DNA of 53,238 nt from Candidatus Nomurabacteria bacterium RIFCSPLOWO2_01_FULL_42_17. Its GTDB lineage: Bacteria; Patescibacteriota; Minisyncoccia; Phycocordibacterales; UBA9973. Within the stretch, counting starts at the first letter, position 1; the number at the start of each line of letters is the position of its first letter. The stretch covers positions 178,533 through 231,770 of the forward strand of contig MFVE01000005.1 in the NCBI GenBank assembly GCA_001785985.1, given 5' to 3'. Under the pieces are notes generated by a model. That model had not been told where the DNA came from and searched no databases. It saw only the letters and a program-made list of their open reading frames with translations. A program made the translations under genes and the position numbers. Positions 16,102 to 28,047 of this stretch are shown in pieces.

Positions 16102-16110
16102 CTTATTTTT

Positions 16111-16133
16111 ACTTTATGAACTTTATAACTTTT
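16111..16133. repeat. 23-nt dispersed repeat ACTTTATGAACTTTATAACTTTT (copy 1)
   Basis: Identical 23-mer also at 28025-28047. Both copies lie just upstream of minus-strand start codons. Confidence 0.8.
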
Positions 16134-16135
16134 TA

Positions 16136-16168
16136 CTCCCAGATAGCGCCTAAAGCGCTATCTGGGAG
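16136..16168 (-). other. perfect 14-bp hairpin overlapping the virB4 stop codon (attenuator or processing site candidate)
   Basis: CTCCCAGATAGCGC-ctaaa-GCGCTATCTGGGAG. No U-tract follows it on the transcribed strand. Confidence 0.5.
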
Positions 16169-18020
16169 CTGTCTGGGCCGCTTCCTGCTCTTCCTTGGCT
16201 TTTTTGTTAGAAAGTATTTGGGAAGGGTCAGAGGTGATGATCTGATCTTCGGTATAAGAAGCGATGATTTTTATCGCAACGTGCTTCAAGCCTGCGAAGA
16301 ATATGCCTTCTCCGACCGAGGATTCCAAGAGAAGATATTTTTCCTCGTCTGTCAGATTAAAGGTTTTCTGTAAGATGTCGATAGTGGTCGGAGATTGTTT
16401 CAAGAGAAGCTGAATGGAAGAGTTGGTGATGATCGGCACTCCATATGGTGACTTCATAAAGTCTGCCGCATCTTGGGTGATGGTGGAAAGTCCCAAGTAA
16501 TATTTTCGGCCTCTTTTGGCGATAGAGTACAAAAATGAGGCTGTATCTTCGGATTTCATCATCCACCAAGCCTCATCGACTACTAGCAGGCGCTTTTTCA
16601 AGTTCTTGCGTATCGCATTCCAGATGTAATGCATGATGATATACATCGCAACCGGTTTCAATTCATCTTCCATGTCGCGCACAGAAAAGACTACAAACTT
16701 TTTATTGATATCCACATTACTTGGACGGTTTAAAAAAGTTTCCCAAGAACCTTTGGTGTATTTTGCCAAGCGAGCGACGACGGAGTCGCTCCCATCCATT
16801 CCAGAAAGCACCATTTCAAAATCCGAAAGGAGCGGAGGCTCGATATTTGAGAAATCCGATTCCGGAGTGATGTCTTTGATGGCGTAGGTTTCAGAAATAG
16901 CGCGGTCTACCATGGAATCTTCTTCCGGAGTGAGTCCTCCCAGCATCAGTCTAAAAAGTCCGACTAGATTAATTGTGTTTGATCGTAAAACATCTTCGGC
17001 TGTCTCGTCTTCTCTGGGTATTGGCAGATCAAAAGGGTTCATATGGTGGTCTGAAGAAAGAGAAATGCTAAAATATCTTCCACCCACAGCTTCCGCTAGG
17101 AATTCATATTCCCTCTCCGGGTCGATGACGATCACATCCACATCAAACATCAGAGATCGGAGGATTTCCAATTTTGTCGCATAAGATTTTCCCGAGCCTG
17201 ATTTTGCGAAAGTTACCGAATTATAATTTTCCAGAGAAAATCGGTCGAAAATAACTAAACTGGAATTATGTCTATTGATGCCATAAAGGATGCCTTTATC
17301 CGAAGTGAGGTCAAAAGATATAAATGGAAAGACACTAGAGAGCGGCTCGGAATTTAATTTTTGGTGGATATTTAAGAGGTCAGTATTTATCGGAATGACA
17401 CTCTTGAAACCGTCTTCTTGTTGGAAGAGCGCTGGTTTGATGTATATTAGTTTTGATTCCAGCATTGATTTTATTTCATTTTCAATTTTGAAAAGCTCCA
17501 ATTCGTTGTCTGCATAGATGGTGATATAAATCCCCACATCAAACATTTTTTCCTGCGCTTGGATCAAGTTGTCGCGCAGTCCCTCGAGGTCTTGATAAGA
17601 GGTGTCCAGCATCGGATCGCGGACCATACCCTTGCTCTCACGCACGTTTATCTGGCTTTGCACTTCCGCCACCTTTTTTTGGAATTGTCTCAGCATCAGG
17701 GAAGTGTCTATCGGGTGGATAAAAATCGAAATATCAAAAACCTTGTCCAAATTAATGATCGGCGAGAACCAATTGTCAGTCAAAAATCTCGGATAAGAGA
17801 TGATAAAAAATGTACGCGCGATTTTATCGCCCAAATTTATGGATTTTGGTTCAATTTTGAGCGCGGAAGGCGCTATGATATCTTGCAGTTCCAGACTGGC
17901 GGATTCATAGATCGCTTCTGGTAATACGGGAGAAATGGAGGCCTCCGCTTCAGGGGCGTAGGTGTTTCCCCTACTTACCTTTGGTATATTATTTTTTTTA
18001 AATTTATCAAAAATACTCAT
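16158..18020 (-). CDS. virB4: VirB4/TrbE-family type IV secretion ATPase (ATPase portion)
   Basis: 620 aa with Walker A FAKSGSGKSYATK and Walker B RLLVVDEAWWMM. Has VirB4-like C-terminal motifs (GLSTITQDAADF). Confidence 0.85.
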   Translation of the reverse strand: MSIFDKFKKNNIPKVSRGNTYAPEAEASISPVLPEAIYESASLELQDIIAPSALKIEPKSINLGDKIARTFFIISYPRFLTDNWFSPIINLDKVFDISIFIHPIDTSLMLRQFQKKVAEVQSQINVRESKGMVRDPMLDTSYQDLEGLRDNLIQAQEKMFDVGIYITIYADNELELFKIENEIKSMLESKLIYIKPALFQQEDGFKSVIPINTDLLNIHQKLNSEPLSSVFPFISFDLTSDKGILYGINRHNSSLVIFDRFSLENYNSVTFAKSGSGKSYATKLEILRSLMFDVDVIVIDPEREYEFLAEAVGGRYFSISLSSDHHMNPFDLPIPREDETAEDVLRSNTINLVGLFRLMLGGLTPEEDSMVDRAISETYAIKDITPESDFSNIEPPLLSDFEMVLSGMDGSDSVVARLAKYTKGSWETFLNRPSNVDINKKFVVFSVRDMEDELKPVAMYIIMHYIWNAIRKNLKKRLLVVDEAWWMMKSEDTASFLYSIAKRGRKYYLGLSTITQDAADFMKSPYGVPIITNSSIQLLLKQSPTTIDILQKTFNLTDEEKYLLLESSVGEGIFFAGLKHVAIKIIASYTEDQIITSDPSQILSNKKAKEEQEAAQTAPR

Positions 18021-18032
18021 ATATATGTTTAT

Positions 18033-18671
18033 TTATTCCAGCTTAATTTTCCCTTCCACTTCTCCCGGATTGAAAACTTTATAAAATACTTCCACGACTT
18101 CTTCTGTGCCCAGCTGAGCGGATTTTATACCACAACGGCTGAGTCCTTGCTCTATCACGCTCACCCTTTCTTCCAATTGAGACCTCTTTTCCTCGAAATC
18201 TTCTTGTTTTGCGATATTTAACTCCTCTTTGCTTTTTCGGCCGAAGAATTTTTTTAGGATTCCAGAATCTGGCCGCAGCGCGCTGTGGGTATATGGCACC
18301 ACCACAAAAAAGCTTTTGGTCATTATACTTACCGATTCGGTAAAATTCCTAATAAACTCTATGTATTCTTTTGTTTGCAACTTGAGCAGGGGTTCGCTTT
18401 GCACTTTCATTCTGTTTTCTAAAAGCAAAAGGTAAGGCCGGATATCTAGCCTTCGGCTTTGGACCGATATTTGAACGGCAAAATCCAAAGTATTTAGAAA
18501 ACTTTGGAATTGGAATATCGTCGCTTTTTGCTCGTCGCTTGATTTCAGAGATAAATTGACCGAATTGGCGAGGATGACCGCTCGCAGACCGCCGTCTTTT
18601 AGCACGATGATTCCGTCGCGGACTTGCTTGATCGGTACAAAATCTTGAGTTGCTTTTGCTTTTAATGGCAT
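18033..18671 (-). CDS. VirB4 N-terminal domain-like protein (separate ORF, same frame as the ATPase ORF)
   Basis: 212 aa. TQDFVPIKQVRDGIIVLKDGGLRAVILANSVNLSLKSSDEQKATIFQFQSFLNTLDF matches the N-terminal pattern of Gram-positive VirB4 (PrgJ/TcpF-like). Separated from the ATPase ORF by TAA plus 4 codons, in frame. Confidence 0.55.
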   Translation of the reverse strand: MPLKAKATQDFVPIKQVRDGIIVLKDGGLRAVILANSVNLSLKSSDEQKATIFQFQSFLNTLDFAVQISVQSRRLDIRPYLLLLENRMKVQSEPLLKLQTKEYIEFIRNFTESVSIMTKSFFVVVPYTHSALRPDSGILKKFFGRKSKEELNIAKQEDFEEKRSQLEERVSVIEQGLSRCGIKSAQLGTEEVVEVFYKVFNPGEVEGKIKLE

Positions 18672-18675
18672 ATAT

Positions 18676-19101
18676 TTAATTTTCTTTGTGTTTACTCAAA
18701 TCTAAAACATCCAGGCTCCAAGCTAAATCTCGTAATTTGTTTCCGCCCAGCCGGACTGTTTCTCTATTCATAATATTTTTTTCGTTTGTCTCTTTTTCTG
18801 GTTCCTTCTGGCTCTTTTTTTCTCTGCTTTTTTTCCAAATATAAAGCTTGCTCTGAGTCAGATAATTAAACCCCGCCTCGATCATATTGATGAATGGCTT
18901 GTTGTTTGGCCGATAGCGAGCCAGCGCTATGGACAGCCCCGCAACAGCTAAGATAGGTATCGCGCCCCATACGAGTCCGAGCAGTTTGTAAATTATAAAA
19001 CAAAGACCTGCGCCACCCACTAAATAAACAAACTCTTTAAAAGTGAATGGGCCAAAGATCTTGTCTTCTATATCTAAAAATTGTGGAACTTTGAATTGCA
19101 T
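18676..19101 (-). CDS. PrgI-family (VirB3-like) membrane protein
   Basis: 141 aa. MQFKVPQFLDIEDKIFGPFTFKEFVYLVGGAGLCFIIY is the PrgI N-terminal signature, with two TM helices. Confidence 0.7.
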   Translation of the reverse strand: MQFKVPQFLDIEDKIFGPFTFKEFVYLVGGAGLCFIIYKLLGLVWGAIPILAVAGLSIALARYRPNNKPFINMIEAGFNYLTQSKLYIWKKSREKKSQKEPEKETNEKNIMNRETVRLGGNKLRDLAWSLDVLDLSKHKEN

Positions 19102-19111
19102 AAATAGCTTT

Positions 19112-19492
19112 TTAGCTGCTTAGCTTTTTAGCTTGTAGCTTATTAAGCATGGCATTCAACATTTTCATAACTTCTTCTAATAAAGAATCTATCTTATTAT
19201 AATCTAATTTTATAGTTTTAGGTAATTTTCTGGCTATTATCAGTTGGGTCTCCAGTTCAGCGCCAGATCCGTAAGACATTCTTAAAAAGTGCAGATAATC
19301 AGCCCTAGTTCCTCTACGCCTACCTTCTGCGATGTTAGATGGTATAGAGACCACAGATCTTCTAATTTGCGATGTTAATCCATAAATTTCCTCTCTTGGA
19401 AATTTTTCTGTCAGTTCATACACGCATATTACTAACTCAATTGATTTTTGCCAAACAATTAAATCTTTATATGAATGTATTATCTCGTTCAT
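19112..19492 (-). CDS. four-helix-bundle protein (23S rRNA intervening-sequence protein / Avd-like family)
   Basis: 126 aa. YKDLIVWQKSIELV...TSQIRRSVVSIPSNIAEGRRRGTRADYLHFLRMSYGSGAELETQLIIA is the family signature. The C-terminal KLQAKKLSS is encoded by the flanking repeat. Confidence 0.85.
   Translation of the reverse strand: MNEIIHSYKDLIVWQKSIELVICVYELTEKFPREEIYGLTSQIRRSVVSIPSNIAEGRRRGTRADYLHFLRMSYGSGAELETQLIIARKLPKTIKLDYNKIDSLLEEVMKMLNAMLNKLQAKKLSS
19121..19140. repeat. left arm of 20-nt inverted repeat (19/20) enclosing the four-helix-bundle gene
   Basis: TAGCTTTTTAGCTTGTAGCT. Its partner lies at 19514-19533. Embedded in AGCT-N3-5 periodic tracts. Confidence 0.8.
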
Positions 19493-19513
19493 TTTATAAG
19501 CTAATTAGCTACC

Positions 19514-19533
19514 AGCTACAAGCTAATAAGCTA
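19514..19533. repeat. right arm of 20-nt inverted repeat enclosing the four-helix-bundle gene
   Basis: AGCTACAAGCTAATAAGCTA, the reverse complement of the left arm with one mismatch. Confidence 0.8.
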
Positions 19534-20586
19534 TTCAGGTATTTCTCTGTATGGGTCTACTTTTGGCTTTTGGGGTATGGGCAGACTTGCTTCGTTTGCT
19601 GGCCTTGTCAGATTTTCCAATGAGTGTTCAGTTTTGGTTACGCCTGTCTGCACAGAGCCAGATAATTTTTCTACTAAGATCGGATGAACTGCTTCCGGTT
19701 TTTCTATTTTGTTTAATATATCTTCCCTATTCTCTGGTATCTTTCCCGCTTCCAGCTCTAATTGTTGTAATCTTTGGGGGATGATCTCAATGCCGGCCGT
19801 ATTTAATACTTTGGTGTCGCTATTCCCCTCTTGAGGGGTGCTCCGACCAAAGTCGGAGTGGGGTGGATAAGTTTGTCCACCTCCCCCTGAAGGGTACTCC
19901 TCAAGAGGAGAATTCCCTCTCGGAGTATTCATCAGCTTTAATAATTCACGAATCTTCAAAAATATTTTTTCGTTTATGTCTTTGACTAATTTTCCAACTG
20001 TTTCTGATGGCACTTTCAGATCACTCTTTAAATAATTTTCAAATTCATCTGGATGAGTCTTGCCGATTATTAGATCAGTAATTGCTTTTTCCAGAATATC
20101 CATCTGAGCGACAGTTAAGTTATATCCCTTGGCGATATCGTAAAGTATTGCCTGATAATTTGATTTTTTGACAATATCTTCAATTCCTTTTGGAAATTTT
20201 TCGAAACTCCCATTCAATTTTTGTTCAATCTCTGGCACTTGCTCTATCTCTCCTTTTTTATTTGCTTCAAATGCTTCAACTAGTTGAGGGCGAATGGTTT
20301 TTATAATGGACTCCTCTATTTCCATGAGCATTTTATCTGTAGAATCTACTGACAATTTCAACTCATTAGTTATATTTTCTTCGTATTCAACTAAATGAAT
20401 AATACCTAGAAGGACCAAGGTTGTTTCTGTGCCGAGCGTTTCTATTTGCTCATCGTTTAGATTATATTTCTGGCTGATTGTTTTTAAGGTTTCCAGCCAA
20501 CCCATACTCGAAAACATTTCTTGCACTTTTTGTGGAAGTTTTGAATAATATAAAGCTATTTTTTCTTGTAATTCTTTTTGGTCCAT
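19531..20586 (-). CDS. cytoplasmic protein of unknown function (two tandem helical domains), carries an in-frame repeat-element insertion
   Basis: 351 aa with no TM or signal peptide. Two similar ~90-aa helical modules, and a Gly/Pro-rich insert at the element position. Confidence 0.55.
   Translation of the reverse strand: MDQKELQEKIALYYSKLPQKVQEMFSSMGWLETLKTISQKYNLNDEQIETLGTETTLVLLGIIHLVEYEENITNELKLSVDSTDKMLMEIEESIIKTIRPQLVEAFEANKKGEIEQVPEIEQKLNGSFEKFPKGIEDIVKKSNYQAILYDIAKGYNLTVAQMDILEKAITDLIIGKTHPDEFENYLKSDLKVPSETVGKLVKDINEKIFLKIRELLKLMNTPRGNSPLEEYPSGGGGQTYPPHSDFGRSTPQEGNSDTKVLNTAGIEIIPQRLQQLELEAGKIPENREDILNKIEKPEAVHPILVEKLSGSVQTGVTKTEHSLENLTRPANEASLPIPQKPKVDPYREIPE
19823..19914 (-). mobile_element. 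92-nt palindromic MITE/RPE-like element, copy 1 (in frame inside a CDS)
   Basis: The 14-nt terminal inverted repeat is TTCCCCTCTTGAGG...CCTCAAGAGGAGAA. Shares 18-nt 5' and 22-nt 3' identical blocks plus the GGGGTGGATA..TCCACCTCCCC core with 44599-44684. Confidence 0.7.
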
Positions 20587-27163: not shown

Positions 27164-28007
27164 GCGCAATCCAATCTGCGAGTGCCAAATCCTCCGCTCT
27201 TTTATTTCCTAATGATGTCAGGGATGCCCCTTGACAGACGTCTTTTAGGTTGCTAGAGAGCTTTTTTCTCTTATGCGCAAAGCCTTTTTTGACTATTTCC
27301 CAGAATTTTTCTTCGAATGCCTGATTGTCCAAGATTTTATCTTGGACAATCGCTTTGCCTCCCTCTCCTTCATCAGGAGAGGGTTGGGGTGAGGTGAATA
27401 GCTTGCGTGAAATATTTTTTATGGAAATTATTGCAGAATTTACTTTAGGCGCAGGTGAAAAATATCTTTTATCCACTTTCATAATCATTTTCGGTTCGCC
27501 ATAGGCTTTGACAGAGATAGAAAGGATGCTCTCTTTCTTGCCCGCCTTAGCTTTAGCGGCGGAGGGGCTATTACCGATTATTCTTTGGGCCACTTCGTGC
27601 TGGACCATCAGCACCATCAAGCTTGGCTGGTTTTCGGCTGTTAGAAACTTTTTCAAAATCGCGCCGGTGATATTGTAAGGGATGTTGGCGATTAGCTTGT
27701 AGGTTGTAGCTTGTAGGTTGTAGCTTTTCAAATCAAATTCTAATATGTCACCTTGTATTAATTTCAGTTGACCAGACGAGATCTCTTTTTGGAATTTAAT
27801 TTGTAGTAGTTCACATAAATCTTTGTCTTTCTCTACAGCTACAAGCTGACAGCTACAAGCTAAAAGCTGTTTAGTCAGCGCTCCCCTGCCCGGACCGATT
27901 TCTAAAATCACATCATCCGATTTTATTTCTCCCGCTTCAATAATCTTTCGCAGAGCTATCTCTGATTTTAAAAAATTTTGCCCTAATGATTTCTTTGCCT
28001 GGTGCAT
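27132..28007 (-). CDS. rsmA: 16S rRNA (adenine1518/1519-N6)-dimethyltransferase
   Basis: 291 aa. KSLGQNFL, EIGPGRGALT and ANIPYNITG motifs. Confidence 0.93.
   Translation of the reverse strand: MHQAKKSLGQNFLKSEIALRKIIEAGEIKSDDVILEIGPGRGALTKQLLACSCQLVAVEKDKDLCELLQIKFQKEISSGQLKLIQGDILEFDLKSYNLQATTYKLIANIPYNITGAILKKFLTAENQPSLMVLMVQHEVAQRIIGNSPSAAKAKAGKKESILSISVKAYGEPKMIMKVDKRYFSPAPKVNSAIISIKNISRKLFTSPQPSPDEGEGGKAIVQDKILDNQAFEEKFWEIVKKGFAHKRKKLSSNLKDVCQGASLTSLGNKRAEDLALADWIALTKEMNRPME
27325..27383. repeat. two perfect 9-bp hairpins forming an in-frame ~26-codon insertion in rsmA
   Basis: TTGTCCAAG-attttat-CTTGGACAA (27325-27349) and CCCTCTCCT-tcatc-AGGAGAGGG (27361-27383). They encode ...PSPDEGEGGKAIVQDKILDN..., which is absent from typical RsmA. 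Confidence 0.65.
27694..27725. repeat. 14-nt tandem (AGCTTGTAGGTTGT x2.3) inside rsmA; left arm of a 32-nt imperfect inverted repeat
   Basis: Pairs with 27837-27868 at 26 of 32 positions. Same AGCTTGTAGCT family as the four-helix-bundle flanks. Confidence 0.8.
27837..27868. repeat. 14-nt tandem (AGCTACAAGCTGAC/AGCTACAAGCTAAA) inside rsmA; right arm
   Basis: AGCTACAAGCTAAaAAGCT matches the right flank of the four-helix-bundle gene at 18/19. Confidence 0.8.
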
Positions 28008-28024
28008 TTTGTATTTTCTTTATA

Positions 28025-28047
28025 ACTTTATGAACTTTATAACTTTT
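28025..28047. repeat. 23-nt dispersed repeat ACTTTATGAACTTTATAACTTTT (copy 2)
   Basis: Identical to 16111-16133. Lies between the pcrA stop and the rsmA start. Confidence 0.8.

Follow-up and report, generated by a model that had tools for sequence, protein, structure and literature searches.

A four-helix-bundle gene between inverted periodic arrays

We analysed a 53,238-nt stretch of DNA from Candidatus Nomurabacteria bacterium RIFCSPLOWO2_01_FULL_42_17 (GenBank assembly GCA_001785985.1, contig MFVE01000005.1, positions 178,533–231,770 of the forward strand), hereafter the window, whose first letter is position 1. Our subject was a block inside a type IV secretion system (T4SS) operon that consists of a gene for a four-helix-bundle (4HB) protein and the repeats on either side of it. 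The 4HB gene (19112..19492, minus strand, 126 aa) is the only one in the window. Its neighbours are all on the same strand: a 351-aa gene upstream (19531..20586), which we found in syntenic position in 70 loci, a PrgI-like gene downstream (18676..19101, 141 aa), recognised by synteny and by a PF12666 match at 2e-06, and then VirB4, encoded as an N-domain open reading frame (ORF) and an ATPase ORF.

A preliminary description of this DNA, made from the sequence alone, had reported a 19/20 inverted repeat around the 126-aa gene, and this was borne out by a mismatch search and shuffling. The 20-mer TAGCTTTTTAGCTTGTAGCT at 19121–19140 (plus strand) returns as its reverse complement with one mismatch at 19514–19533; no further match to the pair occurred in the window at up to three mismatches, and none in 100 dinucleotide-preserving shuffles. 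In a repeat search, the inverted pair lengthened to 28 nt at 86% (19113–19140 / 19514–19541, 373 nt apart). The C-terminal KLQAKKL of the protein is, as had also been claimed, encoded by the repeat itself, with the left arm encoding LNKLQAKKLSS*. The proposed 20-bp stem stood in part: the 19/20 complementarity is real, but the arms are better seen as inverted arrays of a conserved 5-nt core than as a 20-bp palindrome. Each arm has five TAGCT/AGCTA units at 7–8-nt spacing, and the two arrays are mutually inverted. Read in the transcript, the 5' array (19499..19533, minus strand) contains five UAGCU units spaced 8, 7, 7 and 8 nt, and the 3' array (19105..19141, minus strand) contains five AGCUA units that encode KLQAKKLSS and the stop codon. 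As the units are periodic and AGCT is self-complementary, the register in which the arms match is not unique.

The fit between the block and its neighbours is tight. The outermost TAG of the right arm (19531–19533), which is the first UAG of the 5' array, also serves the 351-aa gene as its stop codon, and the 3' array stops 3 nt short of the PrgI-like ATG (19101). For these reasons the entire inserted block (19102..19530, minus strand, 429 nt) fills the gap from the stop of the 351-aa gene to the PrgI-like ATG exactly, and the window reads ...CCTGAA TAG cttattagc...aaaaagcta ttt ATGCAATTC across it. No promoter- or terminator-like site was found at the arms.

The protein was assigned to PF05635 (5.6e-37, 126.7 bits against a cut-off of 33.8), TIGR02436 (2.3e-36, 124.3 bits against 24) and NF008911 (147.4 bits against 137). 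PF05635/TIGR02436 is a very large family, named after a handful of ribosomal RNA (rRNA) insertions; it includes solved structures, and to our knowledge it has no known function outside diversity-generating retroelements (DGRs). The absence of a DGR context noted in the preliminary description held locally, since none of the ten neighbouring proteins belongs to a reverse transcriptase (RT) family and the models for the DGR accessory protein Avd scored below their cut-offs (NF033474, 23.7 bits against 80; bAvd PF22296, 26 bits against 40). Relatives in the PDB by sequence are 2GSC (1.1e-23) and 2RLD, each deposited with five chains, and the 4HB protein is probably pentameric. It is under purifying selection, with dN/dS of 0.07–0.2 against its nearest homologues, at a dS near saturation.

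Relatives show the same junction empty, filled or swapped

By aligning homologues of the 351-aa protein, we obtained 70 syntenic loci from species-representative genomes, all of them Patescibacteria (Nomurabacteria, Paceibacterota and allies). Gene order was constant throughout (769-aa gene, 351-aa gene, PrgI, VirB4-N, VirB4-C), and the gap from the 351-aa stop to the PrgI ATG was readable in 67 loci. In 29 of these the junction is empty, with 1–30 nt only (14 loci at 1–3 nt and 15 at 4–30 nt), so the empty sites in relatives that the preliminary description proposed to look for exist. A 4HB gene occupies 14 loci, with gaps of 411–524 nt, and all representatives tested from the junction were PF05635 members. 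Four loci carry a GIY-YIG gene or its remnant, namely L001 and L035 (287–288 nt, a GIY-YIG ORF between CCCGTTAGAGAT arms) and L004 and L007, which fall in the 31–131-nt class. By gap size that class has 19 loci, these two remnants and 17 that are mostly promoter or hairpin boundaries; counted by content, 19 other sites of 31–131 nt stand beside the four GIY-YIG loci. L068 (515 nt) holds a 170-aa ORF that is not 4HB, apparently the 351-aa gene's C-terminal part, and we did not count it as a cassette.

The closest operon to the window's, L003, with a VirB4 93% identical, is empty and reads ...CCAGAA TAA a ATGCAATTC. Relative to such sites the block is an insertion. Together with L003, the nearest operons by VirB4 carry a GIY remnant (L004) and a GIY-YIG gene (L001). 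Stop codons differ as well: the upstream stop is TAG in 10/15 cassette-bearing junctions versus 1/14 tight empty junctions (Fisher p = 0.0017), which is in keeping with a stop codon completed by the first base of the element. Across 563 kb of syntenic T4SS loci we counted 15 4HB genes, 14 at the 351-aa|PrgI junction and one (L062) at the next junction, PrgI|VirB4-N, which makes the former a hot spot.

The filled junctions do not share one array. Cores were TAGCT in the window, L016 and L013; TAGGC in L010, L029 and L039; AAAGT in L009 and L012; AGTAG in L026; and AATTAC or AATTAAG in L011, L015, L028, L050, L041 and L066. On the tree of the 4HB protein, the junction cassettes fall in at least four separate lineages, and a fifth is represented by L076, a copy from a metagenome. 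On the VirB4 tree the types lie scattered, and a minimum of 16 changes of lineage state and 11 of presence or absence is required; both trees came from quick searches, VirB4 being highly conserved and the 4HB protein short. The three TAGGC operons illustrate this: their 4HB genes make up a single clade (100% support), and the operons themselves were rejected as a VirB4 clade (p-AU 2e-5, for a grouping named after the tree was seen). One small clade contains a series from a full AATTAC cassette (L015) through a remnant with the 3' array only (L005) to an empty site (L003). The occupant of this junction has thus been gained, lost or swapped many times.

The GIY-YIG cassette sits at the same stop|start junction (L001:5053-5341, L035:4930-5219). 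It has an 83–84-aa ORF (PF01541, 2e-17) bounded by CCCGTTAGAGAT / ATCTCTAACGGG inverted repeats, and L004:5098-5230 and L007:4975-5105 retain its arms around an interior of about 130 nt without an ORF.

Gene and arms recur at unrelated operon junctions

A metagenome scan with the 4HB protein returned 80 loci at 45–70% identity. From these and the syntenic set we took 88 cassettes with complete flanks and compared the 90 nt upstream of each gene with its tail and downstream sequence, using 40 shuffles each. The inverted match beat all 40 shuffles in 68/88 cassettes, with a median arm of 30 nt. Units within the arms are spaced 7 nt (123 cases) or 8 nt (57 cases), followed by doubles of these, and multiples of three are essentially absent. 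Unit number per arm peaks at four to five and declines from six upward. The core of the array tracks the 4HB tree, with TAGCT/TAGGN in the window's clade and TAGTGG, AGGGT, AAGGNTTC and others in remoter clades. The 5' arm contains stops in all three frames in 56/68 cassettes, an uncontrolled count, as AT-rich intergenic DNA would often look alike.

Only 4/80 of the metagenome loci have a T4SS context and 0/80 an rRNA gene context. Instead, closest homologues (56–75% identity) with TAGCT-type units lie, going by flanking genes named by eye from sequence and not by family search, at rplM|rpsI (L077), sufC|sufB (L079) and pyk|pps (L085), with further TAGCT-type copies immediately upstream of rsmA (L073) or following recR, lexA and yebC. 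Cassettes point the same way as the upstream gene in 69/75 cases and as the downstream gene in 61/71, and a median of 47 nt separates the upstream stop from the 4HB ATG. Arms of the same kind around other 4HB genes, which the preliminary description had suggested searching for, are therefore common, and gene and arms form a unit that travels to many unrelated operon junctions. Its proposal of a discrete, possibly mobile cassette is well supported by these copies and by the empty sites.

One further copy, at L089:2007-3035, lies between the VirB4 N-domain and ATPase ORFs of another T4SS operon; its 4HB protein is 58% identical to the window's and its arms are of the TAGCT type.

Gene-less arrays and contigs from the source samples

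Over all loci, neighbouring arrays in inverted orientation are either less than 100 nt apart (11 pairs) or 340–600 nt apart (34 pairs), with almost none between; the larger separation is the size of the 4HB gene. Other arrays in cassette-bearing loci match the core of the resident cassette in 31/65 cases against 4.5 expected, and no count as high came up in 2000 permutations. L010 is an example, with TAGGC hairpins at the two junctions that follow the cassette, PrgI|VirB4-N and VirB4-N|VirB4-C.

Only three groundwater DNA runs, and no RNA run, contain the stretch. Among contigs of the source groundwater metagenomes, some join 19103 to 19532, skipping 428 nt, and so have the empty-site form; we assigned these to relatives because the sides of the joint are only 22–27 nt. 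Others join 19145 to 19501, leaving gene-less hairpins with the window's arm sequence and loops of 22–33 nt.

Two other junctions in the window (16110–16132 and 28017–28046) have single arrays of three AAAGT/ACTTT units at 7–9-nt spacing. These share the core of the L009 and L012 4HB cassettes, and the window contains no AAAGT-type 4HB gene. A TAGCT/TAGGT-type inverted repeat, in which a 14-mer is repeated about 2.3 times per arm, was also seen within rsmA (window 27694–27868). We considered it as a solo insertion and rejected this, as the protein is collinear with Bacillus subtilis KsgA (6ifs) and has no extra residues.

A probable inserted cassette and the possible role of its stem

That the block is an inserted cassette of a recurrent family we regard as highly probable. 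The fuller reading, which we hold to be probable, is that it is one copy of a recurrent, promoterless, sense-oriented 4HB cassette inserted between stop and start, and that its arrays pair to form a stem that makes the insertion tolerable. The cassette consists of a 5' array of four to five short units with a 7–8-nt period, the PF05635 gene and the same array inverted. It would have entered between one operon gene's stop and the next gene's start, with a first unit that rebuilds the upstream stop and a last unit that ends a few bases before the downstream ATG, and would be co-transcribed with the T4SS operon. Pairing of the arrays in the transcript would then bring the upstream stop and the downstream start next to each other at the base of a long, imperfect stem. 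This could make the insertion tolerable through excision of the 4HB message by RNase III, like that of the intervening sequences (IVSs) of about 430 nt in 23S rRNA that bear the S23p protein; alternatively, coupling across the stem may be preserved. The minimum free energy fold does pair the two arrays (z = -2.3), with a duplex of -36.5 kcal/mol. The preliminary description had suggested that RNase III cleavage might uncouple the upstream from the downstream genes. We found no RNase III signature in the window, and by analogy with the rRNA elements we regard the stem as a possible RNase III site in vivo, on balance a somewhat doubtful one.

Several observations weigh against this reading. In the ensemble, the 19/20 register reaches a pairing probability of only about 0.2, and each array also folds on itself (-14.2 and -9.5 kcal/mol), which it can do because AGCT is a palindrome. 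Mismatches between arms showed no excess of G·U in a test for a sense-strand helix (67 G·U-type against 78 A·C-type, p = 0.41). Complementarity of the spacers is weak, at 58 matches over 16 cassettes versus 44 expected from permuted spacers (2/16 at p ≤ 0.05); with so slight an excess, we no longer assumed that the arms are kept as perfect palindromes. Judging from these patterns, what seems to be selected is the repeated core with its period and not a continuous helix, and comparison among cassettes gives no particular preference to a sense-strand RNA helix. As for the insertion itself, we identified no transposase, recombinase or clear target-site duplication, the TA...TA flanks being built into the units. 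The empty-site joints among the source contigs come from relatives and not demonstrably from the same strain. Lastly, because the TAGCT and TAGGC junction cassettes form one 4HB subclade, their spread could in part go back to an old insertion with subsequent losses, or to recombination between conserved flanks, instead of repeated new insertion.

Alternative explanations

The main rival, given that core and period are conserved and spacers are not, is that the arrays serve first of all to bind the cassette's own protein, as iteron-like sites, and not as an RNase III stem. A 4HB pentamer would read four to five units of the 5-nt core at the fixed 7–8-nt period, in RNA or single-stranded DNA, and the inversion would follow from there being two binding platforms; the putative outcomes are autoregulation, shielding of the junction or movement of the cassette. 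We think this rather unlikely as the primary role. The conservation of core and period in the face of variable spacers and the missing G·U bias agree with binding, as do the purifying selection on the protein, the number of units per arm, which peaks at four to five and falls from six upward, and the five chains with which 2GSC and 2RLD are each deposited; four to five units may, however, be no more than what a stable stem requires. Core motif and protein clade go together, as they would through co-inheritance of gene and arms alone. Gene-less arrays share the resident core far beyond expectation (31/65 versus 4.5), and single unpaired arrays lie at other junctions such as 16110–16132 and 28017–28046, but matches among nearby solo arrays could be due to local duplication and not to recognition in trans. 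Binding is, moreover, compatible with RNase III processing, and the two are not exclusive.

A second alternative would make the block a fixed, domesticated operon boundary, whose stem, acting in processing or stability, sets how much of the upstream products (351-aa, 769-aa) is made relative to the downstream ones (PrgI, VirB4), with the 4HB gene as a passenger and mobility no longer relevant. The junction is indeed a natural sub-operon boundary in many relatives: about ten loci have TGTGATACAATATAA-type extended -10 boxes 5–7 nt before the PrgI ATG, L051, L056 and L070 have strong GC hairpins followed by TATAAT, and very different contents are tolerated there. We nevertheless judge a fixed boundary improbable, since tight 1–3-nt stop-start coupling is the commonest state in relatives, the same cassette architecture occurs in housekeeping operons without such a boundary, and the high turnover on the VirB4 tree speaks against a fixed regulatory role. 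An orphan Avd left over from a DGR, flanked by unrelated low-complexity sequence, could explain why the protein weakly resembles bAvd (PF22296, 26 bits) and the DGR Avd model (23.7 bits). Both scores are far below their cut-offs (40 and 80 bits), whereas PF05635 and NF008911 pass theirs; no RT, template repeat (TR) or variable region (VR) was found among the neighbours; the gene-plus-arms unit lies at dozens of junctions without DGR parts; and the repeats are far beyond chance. We therefore rejected this explanation, which is very improbable, on model scores and context. It is scarcely credible, finally, that the inverted repeat is a functionless chance product of two AT-rich, low-complexity intergenic stretches. 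Slippage can generate short-period repeats, and direct and inverted copies of the self-complementary AGCT look alike, but the absence of any shuffle match, the same design with different cores in 68/88 homologous cassettes and the bimodal distances between inverted arrays (<100 nt or 340–600 nt) refute it.

Relation to known elements

The closest known counterparts of the cassette are the ORF-bearing IVSs in the 23S rRNA of Coxiella burnetii and Leptospira, in which a protein of the same PF05635/S23p family is encoded inside the element (PMC4990558). The helix-45 IVS of C. burnetii has 428 nt, against 429 nt here, and a 28-bp stem with one mismatch and a bulge that RNase III cuts mid-stem in vitro (PMC4990558). 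Both elements have terminal complementary arms of about 28 nt, and here these arms (28 nt at 86%) close a 373-nt interior with an S23p-family ORF, within the range of about 100–700 nt that describes such IVSs. Both are also sense-oriented and promoterless inside a host transcript, if the cassette is co-transcribed as we propose. In contrast to the IVSs, the host here is a T4SS stop|start junction between protein genes and not an rRNA helix, and the protein is under purifying selection, whereas Coxiella S23p is reported not to be made and to be decaying (PMC4990558); RNase III cleavage, shown for the IVS, is proposed for the cassette by analogy only. We did not file the element as an IVS, because the defining rRNA location fails, and would describe it as a candidate rRNA-IVS-type element living in protein operons.

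Other likenesses are more limited. DGR Avd (bAvd; PF22296, NF033474), a pentamer that binds RT and template RNA (PMC10053308), belongs to a distantly related four-helix-bundle fold family; the cassette differs from it in having no RT, TR or VR nearby and scores below both cut-offs, and flanking periodic arrays are not a DGR feature. As in REPtrons (RAYT-REPIN systems) and MITEs (miniature inverted-repeat transposable elements), a small gene is flanked by its own inverted repeat and gene-less hairpins with the same core lie at other intergenic sites of the locus. The cassette has inverted ends and insertion/empty polymorphisms among relatives, with a possible TA...TA flank that is inseparable from the unit sequence. 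Its gene, however, is PF05635 only, not an HUH (Y1) transposase, known nuclease or recombinase, and its arms are 7–8-nt periodic arrays rather than a single palindrome, with no target-site duplication established. In Xanthomonas, GGGAATC heptamers form intergenic arrays of 7-nt units, and a genome has about 70 inverted pairs, often convergent (PMC4692102). Xanthomonas is also the source of the closest solved PF05635 structure, 2GSC (XCC0516), but PMC4692102 draws no link between the heptamers and four-helix-bundle genes. The remaining comparison, an analogy for the binding mechanism and not a family assignment, is formal. The TRAP protein, unrelated in fold, is a ring that reads spaced UAG/GAG repeats in the trp leader RNA. 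In both cases a homo-oligomer would meet a short core, UAGCU in the cassette, that recurs with a short, constant period, at about one unit per subunit, binding by the 4HB protein being putative.

In the searchable literature, no paper that we found describes periodic arrays flanking PF05635 genes, or such genes at operon junctions. A broader hypothesis, speculative and in its entirety unlikely, is that PF05635 genes with inverted 7–8-nt arrays are transposase-free, operon-riding mobile cassettes that insert at the TA of stop codons, in the space between stop and start. The pentamer would read its cognate array, one unit per subunit, in RNA or single-stranded DNA and aid propagation, perhaps with an RT in trans as for Avd; gene-less hairpins would be non-autonomous derivatives, and the rRNA IVSs the minority that landed in rRNA.

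One conserved junction compared over 67 operons amounts to a natural experiment, in which a 4HB gene packaged with cognate periodic arms enters operons exactly between stop and start and is gained, lost and swapped far faster than the operons evolve. If general, this could explain how such genes interrupt highly conserved operons and rRNA genes harmlessly; it could tie heptamer and octamer intergenic repeat families that lack an explanation to a specific protein family, and it would offer a hypothesis for the function of the 4HB protein, the binding or processing of its own arrays. It also carries a warning for annotation: genes labelled "23S rRNA-intervening sequence protein" in operons of the candidate phyla radiation (CPR) are insertions and not operon components.

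Further features of the operon and its relatives

The 351-aa protein had no family match, and its C-terminal end, ...REIPE*, is conserved; the PrgI-like start ATGCAATTCAAAGT is likewise conserved among relatives. The preliminary description placed VirB6-like genes upstream; the match here was a weak one, of the 769-aa protein to a mycoplasma conjugal-transfer family. A GC-rich palindromic stretch lies at 19823–19914, inside the 351-aa gene just upstream of the cassette.

The split of VirB4 (window 16158–18671; L001–L072) is not a recent nonsense mutation, as the N-domain ORF ends before or at the ATPase start in 65/65 loci with both parts. VirB4-N and VirB4-C are separated by -35 to +123 nt, and periodic-array hairpins lie in the longer gaps (for example in L010, L003 and L028).

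Among the cassette genes, L011 and L015 apparently start with TTG, and two others have one in-frame stop each (L039:1227-1586 and L071:2501-2863), due to either decay or sequencing error. In about ten relatives (including L014, L018, L021, L022, L024, L030, L044, L049 and L065), the gap before PrgI is 17–22 nt and reads (t)TGTGATACAATATAAnn directly before the ATG. The motif resembles an extended -10 box placed 5–7 nt before the PrgI ATG, which suggests a leaderless PrgI-VirB4 transcript in those lineages.

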